64,000 bases of DNA, taken from positions 95,511 to 159,510 of the IMG/VR virus record IMGVR_UViG_3300044535_002275; one strand, written 5' to 3'. The notes below the pieces were generated by a model. The model was not told the origin of the DNA, searched no databases, and was given only the letters and a program-made list of their open reading frames with translations. Source of the DNA: a virus. This document shows, piece after piece, positions 2,840-35,695 of the stretch. A program made the translations under genes and the position numbers. Each line of letters starts with the position of its first letter. Position 1 is the first letter of the stretch.

Positions 2840-3067
2840 ATGAAATTAATATACTCAACTATTTTAGCACTGAGCCTTGTTGCCGGTGTTCACGCACAAG
2901 ACACCAAACCTGCTGCGAACAAAGGCGAAAAGAAAGAAGTCTGCACCGACGTCAAAGACAAGGCTGGTGCTGTGGTCAAGAACAAAGACGGCACGGTCAA
3001 ACAAACTTGCAAAACCATCACTGTGCGTAAGAAGTACGAAGGTACTGCAGTTCCCGACAAAAAATAA
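2840..3067 (+). CDS. small secreted protein
   Basis: signal peptide MKLIYSTILALSLVAGVHA, two Cys, AAGGA RBS. Confidence 0.7.
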   Translation: MKLIYSTILALSLVAGVHAQDTKPAANKGEKKEVCTDVKDKAGAVVKNKDGTVKQTCKTITVRKKYEGTAVPDKK

Positions 3068-21011: not shown

Positions 21012-21866
21012 TCAAGTGCCCCACTCGTTCTTAAACAAAGGAACTTGCAGTCTATCACTGTAGCGCAAGCCATTTTTCATAGCAAACTCTGCTACACGGC
21101 GATTGTTGAGTACGTACACACTTTCCACTCCACCTACCGGCATCAAGTAGCAAGGTCCACTAAATCCAGCAGCACGATATACAGACAATGTTTCCAGTGC
21201 TTCAGCAGCATCCGCTTCTGTGGCAATCACAAACTTGAGGTAAGTGTAACCGATTTCCTGATACTCGCACACAACCTTGGGAAGAATAGCTTCCGACCGT
21301 TCTTCGCCTGAGCAGCTAAGTTTAGCACTGACACTGAAAGTTAACTTGTTGTAATCTCGACCAAACCGTGTAAATTCTGTAAACAAATAGTCTTTGAATT
21401 CTGTGGAGAGTTGTTGAGTGCCGTTTGTTTCGAATGTAATCTCTTTAAGATCTGCCATCTTGGGATGATTCAACAGATCAGGATAAGCACGTTGCCAGCC
21501 CAACAGAGGTTCACCGCCTGTAATGACCAAATGTTCATCCTGCCATTTGTTAAACGGCAGTATTTCTGTAATACGATCAGCAATGGCATCAGTTGTCAAC
21601 ATAGGACTAAGATGCTTAAACTCTGGAGCCCACGAGGCGTACGAATCACATCCAGTTGATACCAACGGTAGTTCCTCGTAGCTTTTAAAATTTATTGCTT
21701 GTTCAGCCACGCGATGACGTTCTTGTGTTTTTTCTCCCAACGGCATACCAAAACCGTCGCAAGTGAAGTTACAACCGAATGTTCTAAGGAACACACTGGG
21801 GACACCCATGAAACGACCTTCGCCCTGGATGGAATAAAATAGTTCTGCGATTTTAATTTTGCTCAT
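21012..21866 (-). CDS. queE: 7-carboxy-7-deazaguanine synthase (radical SAM)
   Basis: ELFYSIQGEG, FLRTFGCNFTC, ITGGEP, ETNGT. Confidence 0.92.
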   Translation of the reverse strand: MSKIKIAELFYSIQGEGRFMGVPSVFLRTFGCNFTCDGFGMPLGEKTQERHRVAEQAINFKSYEELPLVSTGCDSYASWAPEFKHLSPMLTTDAIADRITEILPFNKWQDEHLVITGGEPLLGWQRAYPDLLNHPKMADLKEITFETNGTQQLSTEFKDYLFTEFTRFGRDYNKLTFSVSAKLSCSGEERSEAILPKVVCEYQEIGYTYLKFVIATEADAAEALETLSVYRAAGFSGPCYLMPVGGVESVYVLNNRRVAEFAMKNGLRYSDRLQVPLFKNEWGT

Positions 21867-21880
21867 GATTTATTATACAC

Positions 21881-22369
21881 TTATTTAGAAATTTTTTCAA
21901 CTATGATGCCGCTCTTTTTCAAGAATTCAACTCCAGCATCGCTACGATAATCTTCGCTGTAAAATACTCGTTTCACACCTGCTTGGAATATCATCTTAGC
22001 ACAATCTATACAAGGACTGTGTGTAATAAACATATCAGCATCCTGAGCACTGACAGTGCTTTTGGCCATTTTACTGACAGCATTGGATTCGGCGTGCAAC
22101 ACTTCCGGGCGTGTCTTTAATCTGTAGCAAGTGCCGTCGGGTTCTTGTAGGGGGAAGTAAAGGTCTGCCCATTCAGAATGTTTATCATACCGGTCTGGAT
22201 ATTCTTTGTACTCGCAATCGTTATCCCACCCGGAAGGCATGCCGTTATAGCCGTAAGTGATAACATCGTCCTTAACAATCACAGCGCCTACTTTTAATCT
22301 ACGAGCATAGCTGAGTTCTGCTACTCTGTGTGCAATATCAATATAAGCTTGTATGTACTTTTCTTTCAT
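21881..22369 (-). CDS. dCMP deaminase
   Basis: GYNGMP, HAESNA, SPCIDC. Confidence 0.92.
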   Translation of the reverse strand: MKEKYIQAYIDIAHRVAELSYARRLKVGAVIVKDDVITYGYNGMPSGWDNDCEYKEYPDRYDKHSEWADLYFPLQEPDGTCYRLKTRPEVLHAESNAVSKMAKSTVSAQDADMFITHSPCIDCAKMIFQAGVKRVFYSEDYRSDAGVEFLKKSGIIVEKISK

Positions 22370-22698
22370 TGATGCTCTCTACGACCATCAAACACGCAAA
22401 CAAAATACAAGTCCATTTCGCCGGTGTTGTGTACACGATGAAACACTCCGTTTTGTATAAGGATCATGTCACCGGGACCAACGGAAAACTTTTCGTTGTC
22501 CAGTTCCATTTCACCGAAACCGCGCAAGAAAAAATATACTTCTTCCTGCCCAACATGACAATGGCCGGACGTGCTTTTTTCTCTATGTAAACAAGTTGAA
22601 CTTACTACAAGATTTTTTAAGTCGGTATTATCAATCACAGTATAGCGATCATCTTGTTTGACAATCCGACCGGCAATATCGGCAGTCTTGAGTTTCAT
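22366..22698 (-). CDS. cupin domain protein
   Basis: HCH...EEVYFFLRG...HRVHN. Confidence 0.85.
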   Translation of the reverse strand: MKLKTADIAGRIVKQDDRYTVIDNTDLKNLVVSSTCLHREKSTSGHCHVGQEEVYFFLRGFGEMELDNEKFSVGPGDMILIQNGVFHRVHNTGEMDLYFVCVFDGRREHQ

Positions 22699-23228
22699 TG
22701 ATGATTCTCCTTTGGATCCCAGCGACGCCACCATTCTTCCCAAGGGAACACTATCCATTGCGGATCATCTAGTTTGTTGATGGTTTCTGCAGCATAAGTC
22801 GGAGTTAGTTGACTCTCACTGGCTTGGTTATCATACAGCACAGCCACACGCACATTACCGGGCTTGCCCCAGATAAGTCTCCAATTCTCGCTGTTGGGCA
22901 AACACCCTGCGGGCCAGTCTTGTTTGATCCAGTTCAGTGTGGCACCGGAATCGTTGATGTCATCAACAATCAGGATGTTCTTGCCGTTGAACGCATCTTC
23001 GGCCATCCACAAGTTGCTTTCGCAGTCATCTGCAGCACCGTCGCGCAGTCTGACCTTCAGTGTTTCCATGGGGCAATCAAGATACTGACTAATCAAGTTG
23101 GCCGGTGTTAAACCACCGCGGGTAATTCCTACTACGTAATCGGGTGTCCATTTGTCTAGCCACATTTGACGAACCAGTTCTTGAACTTGACGCTGTACAT
23201 CATTCCAGCTTACATATACCTTTTTCAT
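22695..23228 (-). CDS. purine phosphoribosyltransferase
   Basis: GITRGG, ILIVDDINDSGAT, WIVFPWE. Confidence 0.9.
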   Translation of the reverse strand: MKKVYVSWNDVQRQVQELVRQMWLDKWTPDYVVGITRGGLTPANLISQYLDCPMETLKVRLRDGAADDCESNLWMAEDAFNGKNILIVDDINDSGATLNWIKQDWPAGCLPNSENWRLIWGKPGNVRVAVLYDNQASESQLTPTYAAETINKLDDPQWIVFPWEEWWRRWDPKENHQ

Positions 23229-23947
23229 AATTCTATACCCAGTTGTTTAGCTAAGTCTGTCATTACCTGAACACGTATATCTGCGTCACGACTTCCGTGA
23301 AAATGTAATATCTTAGCTTGACTGATATCACAGTTGTTCCAATGATTTCCTAGCTGTTGATTAAGACTAAAAGCCTGCCACGCCATAGCAGGATCTAACA
23401 CATCTTCTAATTTTATGTTCTGACTCCAGAATTGATAGTTATGCACCAGTTGTCCCCAAGCCCAATTGCCTTCGCTGTGAGTGAACCAACCCTCCATGTG
23501 TCTCTCCCCTACAGCCCATACTTCGGGATGCATTTTAGCAGGATAATAACGTATGTCGTCATTGAAATAGTTAGGGAACTCTGAATGAGATTTTGGATCA
23601 GTGTAGTTGAACATCATCATGTTGTCATAACAACCAAACAGTTCAGTTGGCTTGATAAACAACGTATCAGCACCCATGGCCAAAATATTGCAAGGTTCTC
23701 GATGCCAAAGTTCTTTGATCACATACCATTGTGCAATTTGGTACATACGAGCATCGCGTACTGGCGCAGTGAACTTAATTTCTTCCCAGTCTCCTTGCAG
23801 AAATTTTCTTGCACTAGCTCGACTGATACGATACATGTCTTCGTATTTTTTATGTCCAGCAAGTGCTTGAGTTTCTTCCTCTTGAGTTTTCCAATAACCC
23901 CAAGTGGTGCTGACTGGTCTTACTGCTCCTACTAGGTAATTTTTCAT
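23225..23947 (-). CDS. putative GT-A glycosyltransferase
   Basis: MGADT, YFNDD, ILHFHGSR; sugar-gene context. Confidence 0.55.
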   Translation of the reverse strand: MKNYLVGAVRPVSTTWGYWKTQEEETQALAGHKKYEDMYRISRASARKFLQGDWEEIKFTAPVRDARMYQIAQWYVIKELWHREPCNILAMGADTLFIKPTELFGCYDNMMMFNYTDPKSHSEFPNYFNDDIRYYPAKMHPEVWAVGERHMEGWFTHSEGNWAWGQLVHNYQFWSQNIKLEDVLDPAMAWQAFSLNQQLGNHWNNCDISQAKILHFHGSRDADIRVQVMTDLAKQLGIEL

Positions 23948-25038
23948 GTTTTTAACAAGTCTCTTACAGTTTTCATGGCACTACCAATTACTTGATGCAT
24001 GTCGTAATATCTATATTCTCCTAGCCTTCCACCTATTATAACATTGTTTAAGGTTTCTGCGCGATCTTGATATTGCCTAAATTTACTGGTATTTGCTTCA
24101 TCATTTACGGGGTAGTATGGAACCAAATTTCTATTCCATTCAACAGGTCTTTCCCAAGTAACAACTGTTTTTGAACTTTGTGTTTGAGCAAAATGTCGAT
24201 GTTCGATAATTCTGGTATAATCTTGGTCAGGATCACAATTGTTAATCACTGCACATCCTTGGTAATTGTCGGTGTCCAGTACTTTTGTTTCAAAAGACAA
24301 TGTGCGATATTCCAACTCACCGTATTCATAGTCGAAAAATTGATCAATTTTTCCAGTGTAAACAACACATTTGCCCTGTTGATCCCAGTAAGATTTATTT
24401 TCAAAATAATCCACGTTGGTTTTTACTTCGATACCTTTTAACATGTGTTGGAACAATGCGGTATATCCCGATTCTGGAATGCCTTGATATCGGTCATTGA
24501 AATATCGATTGTCGTAAGTGTATCTAATAGGCAACCGTTTGATTATCCAAGGCGGCAACAGAGTTGGATCTCTTTGCCATTGTTTTTTAGTATAGTCCTT
24601 GATCAACAAATCGTAGACATCTTGTCCTACTAGACTTATTGCTTGCTCTTCAAGATTAGTTATTTCTTTTTTAGTTCTTTGCTGTTGTATTTTGCTACGC
24701 ACAATACTGGGATCAGTTTCTCCCCAGATCTCGTAGAATGTATTCATATTAAATGGCAAGCTATAAAGACGCTGGCCTCTAACAGCCTTGGGCATGTGAA
24801 TATAGTTGTTGAAATCGGCAAACTTGTTTACAAATTCCCAAATTTCTCTGTTGTCAGTATGAAAAATGTGAGGACCGTACACATGTACATCAATGCCCTC
24901 AATCTTGTCTGTGTAGGCATTGCCACCTATGTGTTGCCTGGACTCTAATACAAGGCAGCGTCGACCAGCATCGGTCATTAGTCTAGCAAAAGTTGCACCG
25001 TAAAAGCCTGCGCCAACAATAACGTAATCATACTTCAT
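23944..25038 (-). CDS. glf: UDP-galactopyranose mutase
   Basis: GAGFYG, HVYGPHIFHT, GRLGEYRYYDM. Confidence 0.95.
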   Translation of the reverse strand: MKYDYVIVGAGFYGATFARLMTDAGRRCLVLESRQHIGGNAYTDKIEGIDVHVYGPHIFHTDNREIWEFVNKFADFNNYIHMPKAVRGQRLYSLPFNMNTFYEIWGETDPSIVRSKIQQQRTKKEITNLEEQAISLVGQDVYDLLIKDYTKKQWQRDPTLLPPWIIKRLPIRYTYDNRYFNDRYQGIPESGYTALFQHMLKGIEVKTNVDYFENKSYWDQQGKCVVYTGKIDQFFDYEYGELEYRTLSFETKVLDTDNYQGCAVINNCDPDQDYTRIIEHRHFAQTQSSKTVVTWERPVEWNRNLVPYYPVNDEANTSKFRQYQDRAETLNNVIIGGRLGEYRYYDMHQVIGSAMKTVRDLLKT

Positions 25039-25736
25039 CGATTGTCTACAAGTCCTATGCCCATGACACTGCCACGAATACGTAACAGCACATCATCGTA
25101 TTGATCAGTCCACTCATGCAGTTTTTCTTGAGGATATTGTTTCTGTAAATCTTGCCAAATTTGTTGAGTGCCTGGACAAAAGATATTTTTAATATCGTGA
25201 AAAGCCATCATTTTGGCATTGGAACAGACTGCTGCATAATCGCGTTTGACACCGCTGTAACTGTGATCTCCATCAATCAAGATCAGATCCCATTTCTTTG
25301 ATTTAATCAAACTCACAAAAGACTCGTCGTGACTAGAGTCAGTGAGATAAGTGACGTTTGTGTTGAGTTTTGCATAGTCGTGCATAATGTCTCTGGGCCA
25401 ATTATCAACGGCCAAACAACTTTCCATCTCGTTAAATCTGGCCAGGTATTCGCAAGTGATGATAAATGTACCACCTTTGTGGCATCCAATTTCTACATAA
25501 TTTTGAATTTTGCAACGGGACAAATAACACAAATATTTGCTGAACTGGTTAGGATATTGCCAGCTGTCGACACCAATGCCGCAGTAGCGGTGAAGATGCT
25601 CGGGATATTGATGCATGTGACGATCGTTTAGACCCAATTCAGGTAATAAACGATATTCCAGGTAAGCAGGATCGGATAGTTTTTCAATTGATTCGTTACG
25701 AATGCGCTCAACAACATCTAATAATTTTTTATTCAT
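25035..25736 (-). CDS. class I SAM-dependent methyltransferase
   Basis: VEIGCHKGG, LIDGDHSY, FHD. Confidence 0.85.
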   Translation of the reverse strand: MNKKLLDVVERIRNESIEKLSDPAYLEYRLLPELGLNDRHMHQYPEHLHRYCGIGVDSWQYPNQFSKYLCYLSRCKIQNYVEIGCHKGGTFIITCEYLARFNEMESCLAVDNWPRDIMHDYAKLNTNVTYLTDSSHDESFVSLIKSKKWDLILIDGDHSYSGVKRDYAAVCSNAKMMAFHDIKNIFCPGTQQIWQDLQKQYPQEKLHEWTDQYDDVLLRIRGSVMGIGLVDNR

Positions 25737-25740
25737 AATT

Positions 25741-26559
25741 TTAAGCTTTATCTATTCTAGATACTTGATTATTAACGTCCGCTGCTAGCATTTTGTCCCA
25801 AGGATCAACTTTTTTAGACAGTACATCGTCCCATCGAGACATGTCTACTCCCTTTGATTTTAAATACTCAGCAATCACAGTAGCATCTTTAAACCTGGCT
25901 ACTCTGTTAGAGACATGATTAAAATCTCTGGGATCGTTGATGTTGCCTTCGAAAATCTTACGTCTTTGATAAGTCGAATCGTTGTTGTTACCTGTTAAAT
26001 CAAAACGGTCGTGTTTGACCCGAACATCAATGCGTTGCATAATATCCAAGATCCAAGCAATTTGACTCAGCCAAGCATCATTCAATTGATGCAGACTCAG
26101 ATGCCCAACCACTTCAAACCATTCACGCGGCACAATAGGAAAAATACTGTAAGGATGTAAGTTATGCGTATCAAACGCCTGTAAGCAAAATCGACCAGTG
26201 TAGCTGTTGATTACTGAGTCCCATCCTGGCGTCTCCATCACAGCATCGTCGTTCCAAAAAACAAACCAATTGCCCTCGGCTGCCGCAGCCAATGCATTAA
26301 CATATTGATTTAGTCTTTCGTAGCCTAGTGGTGCAAATTGTAAACAGGTATATGTTCCACCTGATTCAATAATTTCGGGTATGACGTTAGTTTCAAACCA
26401 ACGATACGACAACTGATCATCGGAGTCAAATCCAAATAACCATTCAATGGAAGTTGGATTGTCAGCAGTTGTAATTAAACTTTTAACACTGTGAGCCAAT
26501 TGCTCGGTCCTACCGCGTGTGGGTAATAAAATACTAATTTTAGTTGAATTGTTGGACAT
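25741..26559 (-). CDS. family 2 glycosyltransferase
   Basis: ISILLPTRGR, FWNDD. Confidence 0.8.
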   Translation of the reverse strand: MSNNSTKISILLPTRGRTEQLAHSVKSLITTADNPTSIEWLFGFDSDDQLSYRWFETNVIPEIIESGGTYTCLQFAPLGYERLNQYVNALAAAAEGNWFVFWNDDAVMETPGWDSVINSYTGRFCLQAFDTHNLHPYSIFPIVPREWFEVVGHLSLHQLNDAWLSQIAWILDIMQRIDVRVKHDRFDLTGNNNDSTYQRRKIFEGNINDPRDFNHVSNRVARFKDATVIAEYLKSKGVDMSRWDDVLSKKVDPWDKMLAADVNNQVSRIDKA

Positions 26560-27370
26560 GTTGATGTAGAGAATTTAATTGAGTCACTAACTTTTCTAAT
26601 TGATTAAGCGGTATCATGTTAGGACCGTCACTGGGTGCCGATTCAGGATCTTGGTGTGTTTCAACAAACACTGCCGATACTGATCCAGTTGCTACAGCCG
26701 CCTGGGCCAATGGTGCGACCATCCGACGGTCGCCGCCTGAGCTTGAGCCAAGTGCTCCAGGCTGCTGAACGCTATGTGTTGCATCATAAACCACGGGATA
26801 ACCAGTATGTGCCATAGTAGGTAAACTGCGCATATCGACCACAAGATTATTGTATCCATGTGTGTATCCTCTTTCGCAAAGCATAATTCTTTGATTACCT
26901 GTGGAGGCAATCTTGGCTGCAACATTGGCCATATCTTGTGGAGCAAGAAACTGACCTTTTTTTACATTTACAACACAACCAGTAGCACCAGCAGCTAGCA
27001 GTAAGTCAGTTTGCCGACACAAGAATGCCGGAATTTGTAGGACATCGATGCCAGCATCGGCACAGATCTGTGCTTGATAGCTTTCGTGTATGTCTGTCAA
27101 TACCGGCACACCATACCTGTGTTTGATGCCGTTAAGAATTTTTAAACCCTCATCTATACCAACACCGCGAGGTGTGCCAGCACTGCTTCTATTGGCTTTG
27201 TCGAAGCTGCTTTTGTAGATAAAAGGAATGCTTAAAGGACGAACAATATCTAAAATTGAACCCACTATATGTTGAGCATGCATTTCACTCTCAATTTGAC
27301 AAGGTCCAGCAATCAGCACCAACGGGTTGTTACCACCAATGATCATGCGATTGATTTGGATTGTTTTCAT
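26540..27370 (-). CDS. kdsA: KDO-8-phosphate synthase
   Basis: AGPCQIE, SFDKANRSS, NVKKGQF, DATHSVQ. Confidence 0.95.
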   Translation of the reverse strand: MKTIQINRMIIGGNNPLVLIAGPCQIESEMHAQHIVGSILDIVRPLSIPFIYKSSFDKANRSSAGTPRGVGIDEGLKILNGIKHRYGVPVLTDIHESYQAQICADAGIDVLQIPAFLCRQTDLLLAAGATGCVVNVKKGQFLAPQDMANVAAKIASTGNQRIMLCERGYTHGYNNLVVDMRSLPTMAHTGYPVVYDATHSVQQPGALGSSSGGDRRMVAPLAQAAVATGSVSAVFVETHQDPESAPSDGPNMIPLNQLEKLVTQLNSLHQHVQQFN

Positions 27371-27373
27371 ATA

Positions 27374-27901
27374 TTACCCTTCGTATGTGGCAGAATTTCC
27401 AGCATGTTCAAAAACTTCTACGCTCTTGATACGCACTGATGGATTTAATGGATACCGATGATTTCCATTCTTTAGCAACCAATCCATTTTTTCGTAGCAC
27501 ATTTTGGCAAACAATTCGCAGCCCACTCCTTCTACAATGCGTAGATCACACACACCGCTGCGGCGATATGGTTCAGTTTGCACTCTATTCGGATTTCCGT
27601 CATGCTCTGGATTACTACTCCATCCGGCCATTTCTTTAAATCTATCTAGTAGAGGATCATCGTGTGCAATCACAGTAGTATGATCAAACATATTGTCGGC
27701 CCATGCTTTGAAGTCTTTTAAACCTCCAAAATCCATGCCCCAGTTTTTTTCGTCAAGAGTATCACATTCAAATACCAATTTAATACCAATCGAGTAACCG
27801 TGGAGCAGCGAGCAATGACTGTGTGTGGCACGCCACTGTCTAAAACAGCATGACAGACCTCTATCGTTGCCGTATGTTTTTGTTGAAAGATATTTTGCCA
27901 T
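27374..27901 (-). CDS. queD: 6-carboxytetrahydropterin synthase
   Basis: CSLLHGY, MDFG, FDH. Confidence 0.9.
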   Translation of the reverse strand: MAKYLSTKTYGNDRGLSCCFRQWRATHSHCSLLHGYSIGIKLVFECDTLDEKNWGMDFGGLKDFKAWADNMFDHTTVIAHDDPLLDRFKEMAGWSSNPEHDGNPNRVQTEPYRRSGVCDLRIVEGVGCELFAKMCYEKMDWLLKNGNHRYPLNPSVRIKSVEVFEHAGNSATYEG

Positions 27902-27909
27902 TATGTTTT

Positions 27910-27973
27910 CCTATGTTATAGTATAGCATAGGCAGCAGAGTTTGTATAGCGGGATGAATGCCGGAAGGCCGCT
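27910..27973 (-). promoter_or_regulatory. preQ1-I-like riboswitch candidate with RBS-sequestering hairpin
   Basis: P1 AGCGG/CCGCU, AUACAAA tail, loop-tail pseudoknot pairing; CCUAUG/CAUAGG hairpin over AGGA. Confidence 0.6.
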
Positions 27974-27983
27974 GTAACATTAA

Positions 27984-28715
27984 TTATCTAGGCGCAAAGT
28001 CTTGCTGTAATTTAATATTATCAAAAAACTCTTTTTTGACCCCAGGATCGGTACCAAACACACCTTTAAGCACTGTGGTCTGTGTCAAACTTGAGTGTGC
28101 CATAATACCGCGATTCTCGCAGCAACCGTGTGTAGCTTGAATGTAAACGCCGACATTCTCGCTATCAGTGGCTCGCATTATTTCTCTTGCAATATCGTTG
28201 CAGAGTTCTTCTTGCAAAGTACCACGGCGAGCACACCACTGAGCAATCCTAGTATACTTAGATAGCCCGATAAGTTTATTTGCGGCAATAATTCCAATGT
28301 AGGCAACACCGCTAACAGGCTGATGATGGTGACTACACATACTGCGCAACTCACTGCGCACAACCAACATACCTTCATATCTATCCTCGCTATCATTGGG
28401 AAACGCTGTGGCATCAGGAGCAGGTTCATATCGACCAGACATGATTTCGTACACATACATCTTGGCCAATCTACGTGCTGTGCCTTGACTGTTGGGATCT
28501 GTGACTGTATCAATGACCAGGCTTTGTAGCACATCTTCGAACTTGAGTGTGAGTTCGTCTACTAGTTGAGTTTTTTCTTCTTTTGTGATGTGTGCTGAAA
28601 TGTTGTCTCCCGCCCAGTATCTGACCTTACCTGCTTCTAAGCGTTGGCGAATCACTTGTGATAAATGTTTTTCTTGCATTGTATTTCTCCGAGTTATAGG
28701 GTCGAGGATGACCAA
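27984..28715 (-). CDS. folE: GTP cyclohydrolase I
   Basis: SMCSHHH, IGLSKY, LQEEL, HGCCENRG; start may be 28679. Confidence 0.95.
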   Translation of the reverse strand: MVILDPITRRNTMQEKHLSQVIRQRLEAGKVRYWAGDNISAHITKEEKTQLVDELTLKFEDVLQSLVIDTVTDPNSQGTARRLAKMYVYEIMSGRYEPAPDATAFPNDSEDRYEGMLVVRSELRSMCSHHHQPVSGVAYIGIIAANKLIGLSKYTRIAQWCARRGTLQEELCNDIAREIMRATDSENVGVYIQATHGCCENRGIMAHSSLTQTTVLKGVFGTDPGVKKEFFDNIKLQQDFAPR

Positions 28716-31708: not shown

Positions 31709-32354
31709 ATATTTTCCTTGCGTGATTACAATTGTAGTGAGGTAAATTAAAATTGCTCTCCCACCATAAGGTATGGTAGTGTTGAGCTCGTGTTATATCT
31801 ATGTTGATATTTAGATAATTGTTCCAGGTATCAATTAATTTTGATTCTGTTAAGTTTGGGTGCCATGCACATTGTATGCTTGTAGTTAGCACATCATTGC
31901 TGATAAAGTAAGTATTGTACAAAGGAGGTTGGTAAAGATACGGTTGTTCTTCGTCGAGATAGTATGGATGCCCGCTGGTTCCTCCCAGCCGTTCTTGTCT
32001 TTCAAAAAGAAGTTTACGGTCTACATCGGTGTCTATAGTAATAATAATATATTTTTTGTTTTTGATCAAGTTTAATTCGTTGCGAAACGGGGCAAGTTCT
32101 CCAAAATGCCCGTGTATGATCCAATTTTTTTCAGGCTCTGCAGAAATATTTTCAAATAGATATTTGTGTACATTTCTACCGCCGGTGCTATGCACAGTTC
32201 CAACTGGCTGAGAATCCGAAACCGGAGCATGCGCATGTTCGTATACTTCAGAATTAAGATCTCCGCTGTTGGCAAAGGATTGATCCAGACACAGTAAATT
32301 TTTAAAATGATTGCCACCGGCCATTGGTGGATACGATATAATTACAGCTGGCAT
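31701..32354 (-). CDS. hypothetical protein (sulfotransferase-like N-terminus)
   Basis: YPPMAGGNHF. Confidence 0.6.
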   Translation of the reverse strand: MPAVIISYPPMAGGNHFKNLLCLDQSFANSGDLNSEVYEHAHAPVSDSQPVGTVHSTGGRNVHKYLFENISAEPEKNWIIHGHFGELAPFRNELNLIKNKKYIIITIDTDVDRKLLFERQERLGGTSGHPYYLDEEQPYLYQPPLYNTYFISNDVLTTSIQCAWHPNLTESKLIDTWNNYLNINIDITRAQHYHTLWWESNFNLPHYNCNHARKIYG

Positions 32355-32815
32355 TATACTGAAACTTTCTGAGATTGATGAGTTTCATATTTAATCAAGC
32401 AACCGTTTTCACCATCTTCGGCTACTTCTATCCAGACACTACGTCCAGGATATCTGTTGGCAATCTGCAGGTACAGATCGTCGGCAATCATTTCGCATGA
32501 TTTGAAATCTAAACTTAAAACGGAACTTGTATTATTGGAACCGGTGGCACGGAAAAGGTTCTCCAGCCAGCGTTTGAATTGGATGAATTCGATATCTCGG
32601 TCATTGTGGAATACATCGATCCACACCCGGAAATGAAAGATGTGACGATGAGGATAACCCAAAAACGATACATCATATTCATCTCCTGTGGCTAACATGG
32701 GGTCTGTCAAGGCCGCAGGATATTTATGGATACCTTCGCGATGAAAAGTTATCCAAATTTTTCGTTCGGCTCGAGACATAATACGATCGACTTGTTCACG
32801 TTCTTGTTGATTCAT
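32354..32815 (-). CDS. dpdL: QueD paralog, DpdL-like decarboxylase
   Basis: LGYPHRHIF replaces QueD CxxxHGH; SCEMIA, EDGENG. Confidence 0.7.
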   Translation of the reverse strand: MNQQEREQVDRIMSRAERKIWITFHREGIHKYPAALTDPMLATGDEYDVSFLGYPHRHIFHFRVWIDVFHNDRDIEFIQFKRWLENLFRATGSNNTSSVLSLDFKSCEMIADDLYLQIANRYPGRSVWIEVAEDGENGCLIKYETHQSQKVSV

Positions 32816-33925: not shown

Positions 33926-35626
33926 TTAATCGTTGACAGTGTTTTCTAATTGGTCTAGTAATTCTTCATCGAACTCAGCGGTTTCGATTTCTTCGTCTTC
34001 TGTATCAAATAAGTTATTGAACATGACCCGGGAATTTACAGCTCTGGGTCCAGTAAAACCTCTAGTTCCAATTACTCTTTCCCATACTTTAGCATGATCT
34101 TTAATAATTTGCAAGCTGGTCTGGCGATCTTTAGCAGAAAAAACCTTATCAATAATTCGTACAATATCTAGATCCGAATCAAGCGGATGTACCATCATGT
34201 CCGGACATTGCCCTGAATCAAAAACACGATTTGCACGTTGTACAGCTTCGATATGCATCCAAACATTATGTCCCATCAGTAGTGCATAGCTAAAGCTATC
34301 CCAAGAAGTTTTTCCTTCTTTTCCTACCTTATTCAGCATGCCAGGAGCATAGTGACAAATGTCTGAAATTTTCAATCGGCTGCTAATCGGACTGTCTTCA
34401 AATCCGGGATGTATAACTGTATTAGCTTTGCTGTTTGCTTTATCTTGTCTAACAACATCACCAAACAAACGATTGTCAGTGGCGTACTTTTTGTTATCAG
34501 CTGTGGGACTCATTTGATAACTCCACTTTGATCGATTCTCTGTAGTGATGTTATGATACAATTGTCCGTTGGCTGTGGCCAAGAATGGACTGGCACAATC
34601 AAAGCTAATAGTAAATGTAGGATTGTGATAACGCCTAACGCTGCGTTGAATAGCAGTCAATAGCACAGCCCATTCAAGTTTACTTGTGCCCAAGAAATGC
34701 ATCCAATCCTGTACACCGGACTCTAATAATCCATCATGTATTAAATGTACCAAGCGTTTTAATATCAATTCAACATCGCACATGTTCTGACCTCCCATGC
34801 CCCAGCCGTTGAAGTGTTTTTCGTATTTTTTCGGATCGCAATAATCCTTCATTGTTTGATACCAACGCTCTGCTTCGTCGTGATCACCGCCCTGCAATAC
34901 ATTTAAAATTTTAGTATCGCCATATCTGTTGGCAATCCAATATTCGTTGTTGTATTTGGTTGCATTGACAGCATCGTCGTAGCTGGTAATACCAGAAGCT
35001 GCAGATGCTTTGGGATCACGGAAAGTCCAAGTTGGAATATCCATTGTCATGCCATACGTAGCTATGCCCATTTGCCATTTGAGCACAGTCTCTCTCATTT
35101 TTTTTGCAGCATCTAATTTGGCTTGATATTCTTTGACATGATCGATTTTAATAAATTTTGGCTTGCCATTCTTGTCAAATTTTTGATTGCCAGCATCGTC
35201 TAGTAACGGTTTTAATTCAATACCCTTGGCCACAGCTTCTGCCATTAGTGCAGCAACTTCAGGACTGCTGGGATCCTTCCATTCTCCGGGCCATACTCCT
35301 TTGGCAATCTGGAACCCTCCTGAGTCAGCTAACATAATAGTATTGGGATCTCTATTACGAATCATATCCTCGCGAGGATCCGGCTTTGCTAAATCCAAGT
35401 TAGCATGCCCTGCTGAGTACAGACTCCAACGATATGGGAATAGTCCTTCTTGGGAATTCAACCAGTTAAGTTGCTCCATGTTAGGAATTCCAGCAGGCAT
35501 ACGAGACTGTTCTACATACTCACTGGTTCGTTGACGTCCTACATAATTGGCATAAAAACTACTGAGTGCCGGTAAGAAAATAGCATAGTCTTGTTGCTTG
35601 TCTGTTAAGTTATCTTGTTCGTTCAT
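33926..35626 (-). CDS. dpdA: TGT-fold 7-deazaguanine transglycosylase (DpdA-like)
   Basis: ADSGGFQ, MDIP, NVLQG, HFLG, SFDCAS; folE/queD/queE nearby. Confidence 0.75.
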   Translation of the reverse strand: MNEQDNLTDKQQDYAIFLPALSSFYANYVGRQRTSEYVEQSRMPAGIPNMEQLNWLNSQEGLFPYRWSLYSAGHANLDLAKPDPREDMIRNRDPNTIMLADSGGFQIAKGVWPGEWKDPSSPEVAALMAEAVAKGIELKPLLDDAGNQKFDKNGKPKFIKIDHVKEYQAKLDAAKKMRETVLKWQMGIATYGMTMDIPTWTFRDPKASAASGITSYDDAVNATKYNNEYWIANRYGDTKILNVLQGGDHDEAERWYQTMKDYCDPKKYEKHFNGWGMGGQNMCDVELILKRLVHLIHDGLLESGVQDWMHFLGTSKLEWAVLLTAIQRSVRRYHNPTFTISFDCASPFLATANGQLYHNITTENRSKWSYQMSPTADNKKYATDNRLFGDVVRQDKANSKANTVIHPGFEDSPISSRLKISDICHYAPGMLNKVGKEGKTSWDSFSYALLMGHNVWMHIEAVQRANRVFDSGQCPDMMVHPLDSDLDIVRIIDKVFSAKDRQTSLQIIKDHAKVWERVIGTRGFTGPRAVNSRVMFNNLFDTEDEEIETAEFDEELLDQLENTVND

Positions 35627-35695
35627 TCGGTTTCCTTTTCCTGCGGGCACAATTTCTTTATAATTTCCAACTGTTCCTAAACTGCTCCAGAGATT

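Follow-up and report, generated by a model that had tools for sequence, protein, structure and literature searches.

A preQ1-I-like pseudoknot in the leaders of phage queD genes and its predicted role as a translational riboswitch

The folE-queD gap and its neighbourhood

The DNA analysed here (the window, 64,000 nucleotides) is part of the 159.5-kb IMG/VR record IMGVR_UViG_3300044535_002275, which comes from a lake jumbo phage and has a CheckV completeness estimate of 44%. The window carries 22 tRNA genes (Rfam, gathering threshold). On its minus strand, folE and queD are separated by a gap of 82 nt (27902-27983), which runs from the folE stop codon TAG (27984-27986) to the queD start codon ATG (27899-27901). 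A first-pass annotation, made from the sequence alone, had proposed that this gap holds a riboswitch resembling preQ1-I, and all the elements that it named (P1, the loop, the tail, the loop-tail pairing and a hairpin over the ribosome-binding site, RBS) were found there. The features of the locus are as follows, from 5' to 3' on the minus strand.

27984-28715, minus strand: folE, GTP cyclohydrolase I (Pfam GTP_cyclohydroI 4e-38; NCBIfam FolE models)
27969-27973, minus strand: P1 5' strand AGCGG, pairing with 27948-27952
27963-27968, minus strand: L1, CCUUCC, in which C-U at the second and third positions is invariant in the homologs
27959-27962, minus strand: P2a 5' strand GGCA, pairing with UGCC at 27931-27934
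27955-27958, minus strand: UU and then CA, that is, the internal-loop U and the P2b 5' strand (C27956-G27936, A27955-U27937)
27953-27954, minus strand: L2, UC; C27953, just 5' of the P1 3' strand, is the candidate specificity base
27948-27952, minus strand: P1 3' strand CCGCU, partner of AGCGG
27938-27947, minus strand: L3, AUACAAACUC, the A-rich tail; three A and UC are invariant
27931-27937, minus strand: P2 3' strand, made of UG (P2b), C27935 opposite the loop U, and UGCC (P2a); duplex estimate about -6.4 kcal/mol
27910-27932, minus strand: anti-Shine-Dalgarno (anti-SD) hairpin CCUAUG-11 nt-CAUAGG (CCUAUG 27927-27932, CAUAGG 27910-27915)
27920-27928, minus strand: extended -10-like element TGCTATACT inside the anti-SD hairpin (loop and 5' arm), a possible internal promoter
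27909-27912, minus strand: Shine-Dalgarno AGGA, followed by a 7-nt spacer and the queD start codon at 27899-27901 (from the sequence and the list of open reading frames)
27374-27901, minus strand: queD-like gene for a T-fold enzyme of 175 aa, the putative regulated gene (Pfam PTPS 5e-14; PHROG 2389 'QueD-like' 2e-34)

The folE gene, upstream of the aptamer on the same strand, is a likely source of read-through transcripts into the queD leader, and no terminator was found in the window leader. The window queD product scored 31 bits with the QueD model TIGR03367, under the model cut-off, and it carries the signature CxxxHGY, which replaces the QueD-type CxxxHGH. Both T-fold forms can coexist, as observed at one homologous locus (L168), where the motif is followed by a canonical CxxxHGH QueD and then by a tandem HGY-type paralog.

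A KDO-8-phosphate synthase gene lies directly after queD in the window. Frequently, queD is followed by a sugar-type cluster (23944-27370, minus strand, in the window; also at L005, L106, L140 and L156), whose members are KDO-8-P synthase, a conserved protein of about 272 aa, a methyltransferase and UDP-galactopyranose mutase. The protein of about 272 aa (25741-26559) has no Pfam match, and its pairing with queD recurs in distant phages. At L156, a cupin gene is located between the RNA motif and queD.

The leader contains an H-type pseudoknot at 27931-27973 (minus strand), in which P1 is AGCGG/CCGCU and P2 consists of GGCA/UGCC plus CA/UG. The loop between the P1 strands has 16 nt (CCUUCCGGCAUUCAUC), and the tail after P1 reads AUACAAACUCUGC, followed by UGCC (27931-27934). 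The order of the elements is P1 5', L1, P2a 5', U, CA, L2, P1 3', L3, UG, C and P2a 3', and in the window P2 has only 4 + 2 bp. The nested minimum free energy (MFE) of the window leader was -14.6 kcal/mol, no better than that of shuffled sequences (z = 0.21). Since nested folding cannot see a pseudoknot, this single-sequence MFE is uninformative; therefore, the window alone proves nothing and comparative data were needed.

Conservation, distribution and relation to known RNA families

An IMG/VR search with the window QueD protein gave 528 relatives. The best 80 of these, 73-95% identical, were retained, and the leaders were compared over positions -130 to +12 of each queD. Among these best 80, the motif was present upstream of queD in 78 of the 79 loci having upstream sequence; in the only exception (L078), queD overlaps the preceding gene. 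Two alignments were analysed: A2, with 48 rows and 46 distinct homologous leaders aligned from fixed 5' ends, and A3, a second set taken from viral contigs that were found with the sequence pattern described below.

In A2, P1 is 99.6% paired with double changes at four of its five pairs (A-U/U-A; G-C/U-A; C-G/A-U/U-A; G-C/C-G), and P2 is 84.8% paired with double changes at eight of nine pairs. The covariation score was 0.397, against 0.131 ± 0.014 for shuffled alignments, and it was reached in 0 of 500 shuffles, a count that is not a probability, the aligned sequences being related. When the 3' partners were slid by 1-3 columns, the score was 0.035-0.089 with 30-49% of the cells paired. In A3, P1 and P2 are 99.4% and 81.8% paired, respectively, with a score of 0.316 against 0.106 for shuffled alignments. 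Over both alignments, compensatory changes were found at 3-4 of the five P1 pairs and 7-8 of the nine P2 pairs. The architecture that had been read from a single sequence, a 5-bp P1 with an A-rich tail and a loop-tail pseudoknot, is thereby borne out, and the covariation upstream of phage queD homologs on which the riboswitch proposal had been made to depend was found in both P1 and P2.

Among the homologs, P1 also occurs as AGAGG/CCUCU, AGUGG/CCACU, UGCGG/CCGCA, AGUCG/CGACU, AUCGG/CCGAU and ACCGG/CCGGU, with an invariant G-C pair closing its top. The P2a columns covary (GGCAU/AUGUC, GACGC/GUGUC, GGCG/CGCC, GGUG/CACC), the 5' strand being 4-7 nt long, and the P2b CA/UG step hardly varies and shows two independent double changes, CG/CG (L079) and UA/UA (L376). 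The L1 consensus is N, C (100%), U (98-100%) and U (about 79%), and then 0-5 variable bases. L2 is N-C, occasionally with 3 nt; the C at the position of 27953 was found in 100% of 159 distinct sequences, preceded by U (65-88%) or else by A or C. L3 follows the consensus N-U-A-N-A-A-A-Y-U-C. In the alignments whose sequences were collected through protein homology and not by the motif, conservation is 100% at the three A, the U and the C of L3, and altogether at least 10 unpaired positions are 98-100% conserved. A set of conserved unpaired bases of this size is the pattern typical of a tertiary fold or a ligand pocket, and would point to one of them here. The comparative evidence makes it almost certain that the queD-leader motif is a functional RNA that has been conserved.

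Viral contigs were scanned with a degenerate 23-nt pattern that represents the invariant core, and at least 119 further contigs matched. Downstream of 75 of the 80 listed matches, the start of a queD homolog 32-92% identical to that of the window lies at most about 110 nt away; of the other five, two are chance hits with no P1. A second queD subfamily (at least 595 loci, 38% identical to the window queD) was gathered by protein alone, and the motif was present in 67 of the 80 loci sampled; in the other 13, queD abuts the stop codon of the upstream gene or the locus is incomplete. Together, the two sampled subfamilies comprise more than 1,100 queD loci, and most of the sampled loci carry the motif. 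A covariance model built from the motif (R1, with rough E-values) found one copy per genome in five of five phage records of 126-364 kb, always before queD and with 52-66 bits. Over more than 200 loci, the element keeps one orientation and one position relative to queD.

Among the data searched, the element was found only in uncultured phage contigs. For isolate phages, tblastn gave 105 QueD relatives, all less than 60% identical (44-48% for the listed matches); in the four isolate phages inspected, queD abuts or overlaps the preceding gene and is leaderless. A blastn search of the leader against isolate phage genomes gave nothing real. Scanning of bacterial genomes with the 23-nt pattern gave more than 120 matches, with no true copy among the 80 listed and checked. 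The sole full-length R1 score among those 80, 33 bits in an Aliiroseovarius MAG (L288), was rejected as a chance hit, with neither P1 nor queD and located at a gene end. No description of the motif was found in the literature searched, in which subscription journals are thinly covered.

The DNA of the window stretch is present in 18 lake-water or soil DNA metagenome runs. Runs labelled as RNA consist of contigs, probably of DNA, with small shares of the stretch, and do not bear on transcription, its starts or its strand. In one lake run (X1), the summed contig depth was 287 over the aptamer (27912-27962) against 28-110 on the flanks. This peak fits many co-occurring related phages having a short conserved stretch in common, and is no sign of expression.

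Search of the whole window with Rfam 15 at the gathering threshold gave tRNAs only. The PreQ1 family RF00522 gave nothing at E <= 10 on 27850-28050 of the window or on 2900-3010 of a homologous contig (L066), and over the whole 159.5-kb record it reached 9-12 bits, elsewhere only, the gathering score being 39 bits; as a control, the same model found three Oceanobacillus elements at 45-49 bits. Membership in the preQ1-I family, the class to which the first-pass annotation had matched the leader, was therefore not demonstrable in this Rfam check. With R1 on Oceanobacillus, the best of three loci is a real preQ1-I element, at 10.3 bits, which is not significant. PreQ1-II (RF01054) and preQ1-III (RF02680) were found neither at the gathering threshold over the window nor at E <= 10 on the locus. 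Rfam hits at E <= 10 on two leaders (Yfr21, snR56, RsaJ, pestivirus IRES and mir-1262) were discarded as spurious.

In preQ1-I riboswitches, the C directly before the P1 3' strand pairs with preQ1 and is preceded by U (type I) or by A (types II and III) (PMC11625349). The motif likewise has an invariant C at this position, with U or A, or else C, before it. It also has in common with preQ1-I that the pseudoknot is small and of the H type, that P1 has 5 bp with a G-C closing pair, that L1 is rich in pyrimidines and includes UU, that L3 is of the UAnAAA type, that a C of the 3' tail is conserved, and that it is associated with a gene of the queuosine or 7-deazaguanine pathway. The A-rich L3 of preQ1-I runs in the minor groove of P1 above a conserved closing G-C pair; at the level of sequence, the motif has three invariant A and the invariant G-C pair, with UC in addition in L3. 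Unlike preQ1-I, the motif has a longer L3 (10 nt) ending in invariant UC, a longer, bipartite P2 (6-10 bp) in which a U.C mismatch is conserved, and an L1 of N-C-U-U followed by variable bases, and it was found only in uncultured phages with no QueC and QueF. In addition, the P2 3' strand of preQ1-I includes Shine-Dalgarno bases or leads into a terminator and the ligand turns expression OFF, whereas in the motif it is the anti-RBS strand and ON switching is predicted. In the other pseudoknotted aptamers compared, loop bases likewise line a helix groove and the ligand is bound at a helix junction, but their helices are arranged otherwise, the Shine-Dalgarno is sequestered upon ligand binding and there is no Rfam match to the motif. 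As judged from sequence, the motif would work like a preQ1-I-type pseudoknot aptamer, and it is not a demonstrated preQ1-I member.

Pairing of the P2 3' strand with the ribosome-binding region

An adjoining CCUAUG/CAUAGG hairpin over the AGGA, overlapping the end of the tail, had been noticed in the first reading of the window, and this observation stands. The 3' arm of the hairpin covers AGG of the Shine-Dalgarno AGGA, and two C (C27932 and C27931) are common to the hairpin and P2. The energy of the window hairpin was calculated to be -5.7 kcal/mol with both C available and +0.5 kcal/mol after their loss to P2, with about -6.4 kcal/mol for the P2 duplex. By these estimates, the pseudoknot and hairpin states of the window are close in energy, and they are mutually exclusive.

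Four leader designs (types A-D) were distinguished, the window being of type A. In type A, the two C that end P2 begin the CCUAUG/CAUAGG hairpin over the Shine-Dalgarno AGG. In types B and C, the P2 3' strand runs on into GUCAUC or GUCAUUG, which pair with GAUGGC or CAAUGGC, namely the start codon and codon 2, to form a helix of 7-8 bp. In type D, the partner of this strand is the Shine-Dalgarno or the sequence just 3' of it. The distance from the P2 3' strand to the Shine-Dalgarno downstream is about 18-45 nt (about 18 nt in the window). The strand has complementarity to the region of the Shine-Dalgarno or of the AUG, and its bases pair with one of these regions in 39 of 39 leaders folded.

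These pairings are also conserved. Of 109 type A platforms, 106 retain the hairpin stem, with one compensatory variant, CCUAUA/UAUAGG (L157). In the non-type-A leaders, represented by 49 distinct platforms, each of six consecutive positions of the anti-start helix is paired in 44-49 sequences, and the non-coding -1 base switches together with its partner between U-A (23) and C-G (22). The longest helix between tail and RBS was 6.5 for own pairs, 4.8 for shuffled and 5.7 for cross-type pairs, a modest contrast in a statistic for which type A was mis-windowed.

Since the P2 3' strand is complementary to the RBS region, the knot and the occlusion of the ribosome site exclude each other, which is the logic of an ON switch. 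A translational ON switch is the simplest reading of these leaders, the direction of switching being one that we infer from structure. The motif presents the general features of a riboswitch, with a conserved covarying aptamer in queD leaders and an expression platform that is mutually exclusive with the aptamer, and from these sequence features it is probably a ligand-sensing one. The add adenine riboswitch is a translational ON switch, in which the ligand-stabilised aptamer forms at the expense of a helix occluding the Shine-Dalgarno or the AUG. The motif resembles add in the predicted ON competition, and differs in that add is a bacterial riboswitch with a three-way-junction purine fold and another pocket.

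A promoter scan of the window leader gave TATACA-17-TATACT preceded by a TG. Of the 109 type A platforms, 100 contain a TGnTAnAAT-like element, and some variants, for example L157 (with the CCUAUA/UAUAGG stem) and L122, keep the hairpin with no -10-like element. Type A loci follow a coding gene, and no promoter precedes their aptamer. In types B and C, sigma-70-like and TATAAATA (T4-late-like) elements lie just 5' of the aptamer, and no internal promoter-like element was present in types B, C and D. Since the type A hairpin also spells an extended -10-like element, its conservation may be partly at the DNA level. From its position, some type A queD transcripts may bypass the aptamer by starting at this internal element.

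Transcripts started at the -10-like element inside the hairpin would carry neither the aptamer nor the inhibitory arm, which resembles the T4-style control by alternative transcripts. Phage T4 silences early read-through transcripts by RBS hairpins, and late genes under this control have a promoter inside the hairpin. The type A hairpin over the RBS, with its -10-like element inside, is similar to this arrangement; the queD leaders differ from T4-type control in that the covarying aptamer upstream also contends for the inhibitory arm, and that no internal promoter-like element was present in types B, C and D.

Pathway context, candidate ligands and alternative explanations

Besides folE and queD, three genes of the window relate to 7-deazaguanine metabolism.

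21012-21866, minus strand: queE-like radical SAM gene (PHROG 2076 2e-50; five QueE NCBIfam models below their cut-offs)
32354-32815, minus strand: DpdL-like T-fold paralog with LGYPHRHIF, which matches the LxxxHRHxF signature
33926-35650, minus strand: 574-aa protein with a DSGGFQ motif; the nearest named atlas clusters are TGT-like and DpdA, a lead only

LxxxHRHxF is the signature of DpdL, the proposed CDG decarboxylase of the dDG pathway (PMC10516641). The queE-like, queD-like, folE and DpdL-like genes and that of the DSGGFQ protein make up a QueC-less 7-deazaguanine set, all on the minus strand, and by gene content this set fits the proposed dDG route (PMC10516641). A DpdL-like gene was present in 11 of 11 large motif-bearing records examined, window included. 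In five of these records (G001-G004 and G010), several DpdL-like matches contain one or two in-frame stops (TAA/TGA), which are maybe match edges past the true start. The 574-aa DSGGFQ protein was not recognised in Pfam TGT and PDB sequence searches, and no Pfam TGT was found in the carrier genomes examined, including those 98-100% complete. The absence of queC and queF from the window, on which the first-pass annotation had remarked, was confirmed and extends to the whole 159.5-kb record and to three relatives at least 98% complete, where no full QueC or QueF was found.

Since the carriers have FolE, QueD, QueE-like and DpdL-like proteins and neither QueC nor QueF, the ligand is probably not a phage-made preQ1; the earlier caution that the ligand need not be preQ1 fits the gene content of the carriers. 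As judged from this gene content, the ligand may be 7-deazaguanine, CDG, preQ0, guanine (from base exchange) or the pterin substrate. Of these, 7-deazaguanine, CDG, guanine and the pterin all offer a 2-amino-4-oxo face that could be read by the invariant C. In a complete 364-kb record, folE is located about 50 kb from queD, and the neighbours of queD vary among genomes. Since queD stands apart from the rest of the pathway in these other genomes, the element would act specifically on the step by which the FolE product is committed to 7-deazapurines.

Taken as a whole, the leader is best read as a preQ1-I-like pseudoknot riboswitch of queD with ON logic, to which we give a probability of about 0.6 from the sequence comparisons. 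The compact H-type pseudoknot would be an aptamer that binds a small planar ligand with a guanine-like face. When not in the knot, the P2 3' strand would pair with the ribosome-binding region (a hairpin over the Shine-Dalgarno in the window, a helix over the AUG in other phages), so that the pseudoknot locked by its ligand would free the ribosome site and turn queD translation ON. QueD would catalyse the committing step from the FolE product towards 7-deazapurines, for DNA modification by a QueC-less pathway of the DpdL type. With the end product as ligand, ON switching at the first committed biosynthetic step would be unusual. The more specific proposal of a phage-only riboswitch class derived from the preQ1-I fold, which senses 7-deazaguanine, CDG or guanine released by transglycosylation and switches QueD translation ON, is tentative, with the odds somewhat against it as a whole; under this proposal, synthesis of a base for DNA hypermodification would be coupled, in the infected cell, to the supply of that base or the demand for it.

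Alternative explanations were weighed against this riboswitch reading. A genuine, divergent preQ1-I riboswitch sensing preQ1 or preQ0 of the host, whose extra P2 and L3 bases would be peripheral, is improbable. Although it accounts for the same H-type topology, the G-C pair atop P1, the UC or AC before the P1 3' strand, the UAnAAA of L3, the linkage to a queuosine-pathway gene and the identity of the best R1 match in Oceanobacillus, a real preQ1-I element, it is at odds with the blank RF00522 result at the locus (E <= 10) and with the non-significant reciprocal score of 10.3 bits. Moreover, the bases beside the presumed pocket differ (L1 of N-C-U-U, L3 ending in invariant UC), the P2 3' strand is anti-RBS and lies outside the Shine-Dalgarno, and carriers with neither QueC nor QueF make no preQ0 or preQ1 of their own. 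That the element is a DNA-level signal (promoter or operator) or a chance resemblance, and not an RNA structure, is hardly credible in view of the compensatory double changes, which keep most P1 and P2 pairs paired as the sequence varies, the drop to 30-49% pairing in slid registers, and the constant orientation and position relative to queD over more than 200 loci. The promoter-like match that overlaps the element and the unremarkable single-sequence folding are the observations that speak for it.

A structured leader that acts independently of any ligand is a doubtful explanation, but one to be taken seriously. Translation would then be set by the form of the transcript, as in T4, or by a phage protein binding the knot; in the transcript-form version, long read-through transcripts would be silent and those from the promoter inside the hairpin translated. 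The TGnTAnAAT element inside the hairpin of 100 of 109 type A platforms agrees with this version, as does the lack of a promoter before the aptamer in type A, against the sigma-70-like and TATAAATA elements in types B and C. However, a specific tertiary fold is indicated by about 10 invariant unpaired bases and the invariant C at the pocket position, the aptamer and the competition persist in types B, C and D although these have no internal promoter-like element, and variants such as L157 and L122 keep the hairpin with no -10-like element.

To our knowledge, phage-carried riboswitches are few, and we know of none that controls phage DNA hypermodification. The element is abundant in lake phage metagenomes, has no counterpart in Rfam 15 and was found in none of the isolate phage genomes searched, and its predicted wiring is the inverse of that of every characterised preQ1 riboswitch. 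If 7-deazaguanine, CDG or guanine is bound, the element would add a new specificity to the smallest riboswitch fold that is known, would show how a fold is rewired from OFF to ON, and would provide a compact ON-switch part and a sensor for 7-deazapurine metabolism. In addition, the element makes the proposed DpdL (dDG) pathway approachable by experiment.

Further genes lie directly upstream of the queE-like gene in the window (21881-23228, minus strand), coding for a dCMP-deaminase-like protein (21881-22369), a cupin (22366-22758) and a phosphoribosyltransferase (22695-23228). A phosphoribosyltransferase beside CDG-synthesis genes is reminiscent of the tubercidin- and toyocamycin-type routes to 7-deazapurine nucleotides. 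In the four whole records inspected (G000-G003), 4-14 radical SAM-like genes were found in each, many of them clustered, with 8 in the record of the window and 14 in a 270-kb relative.
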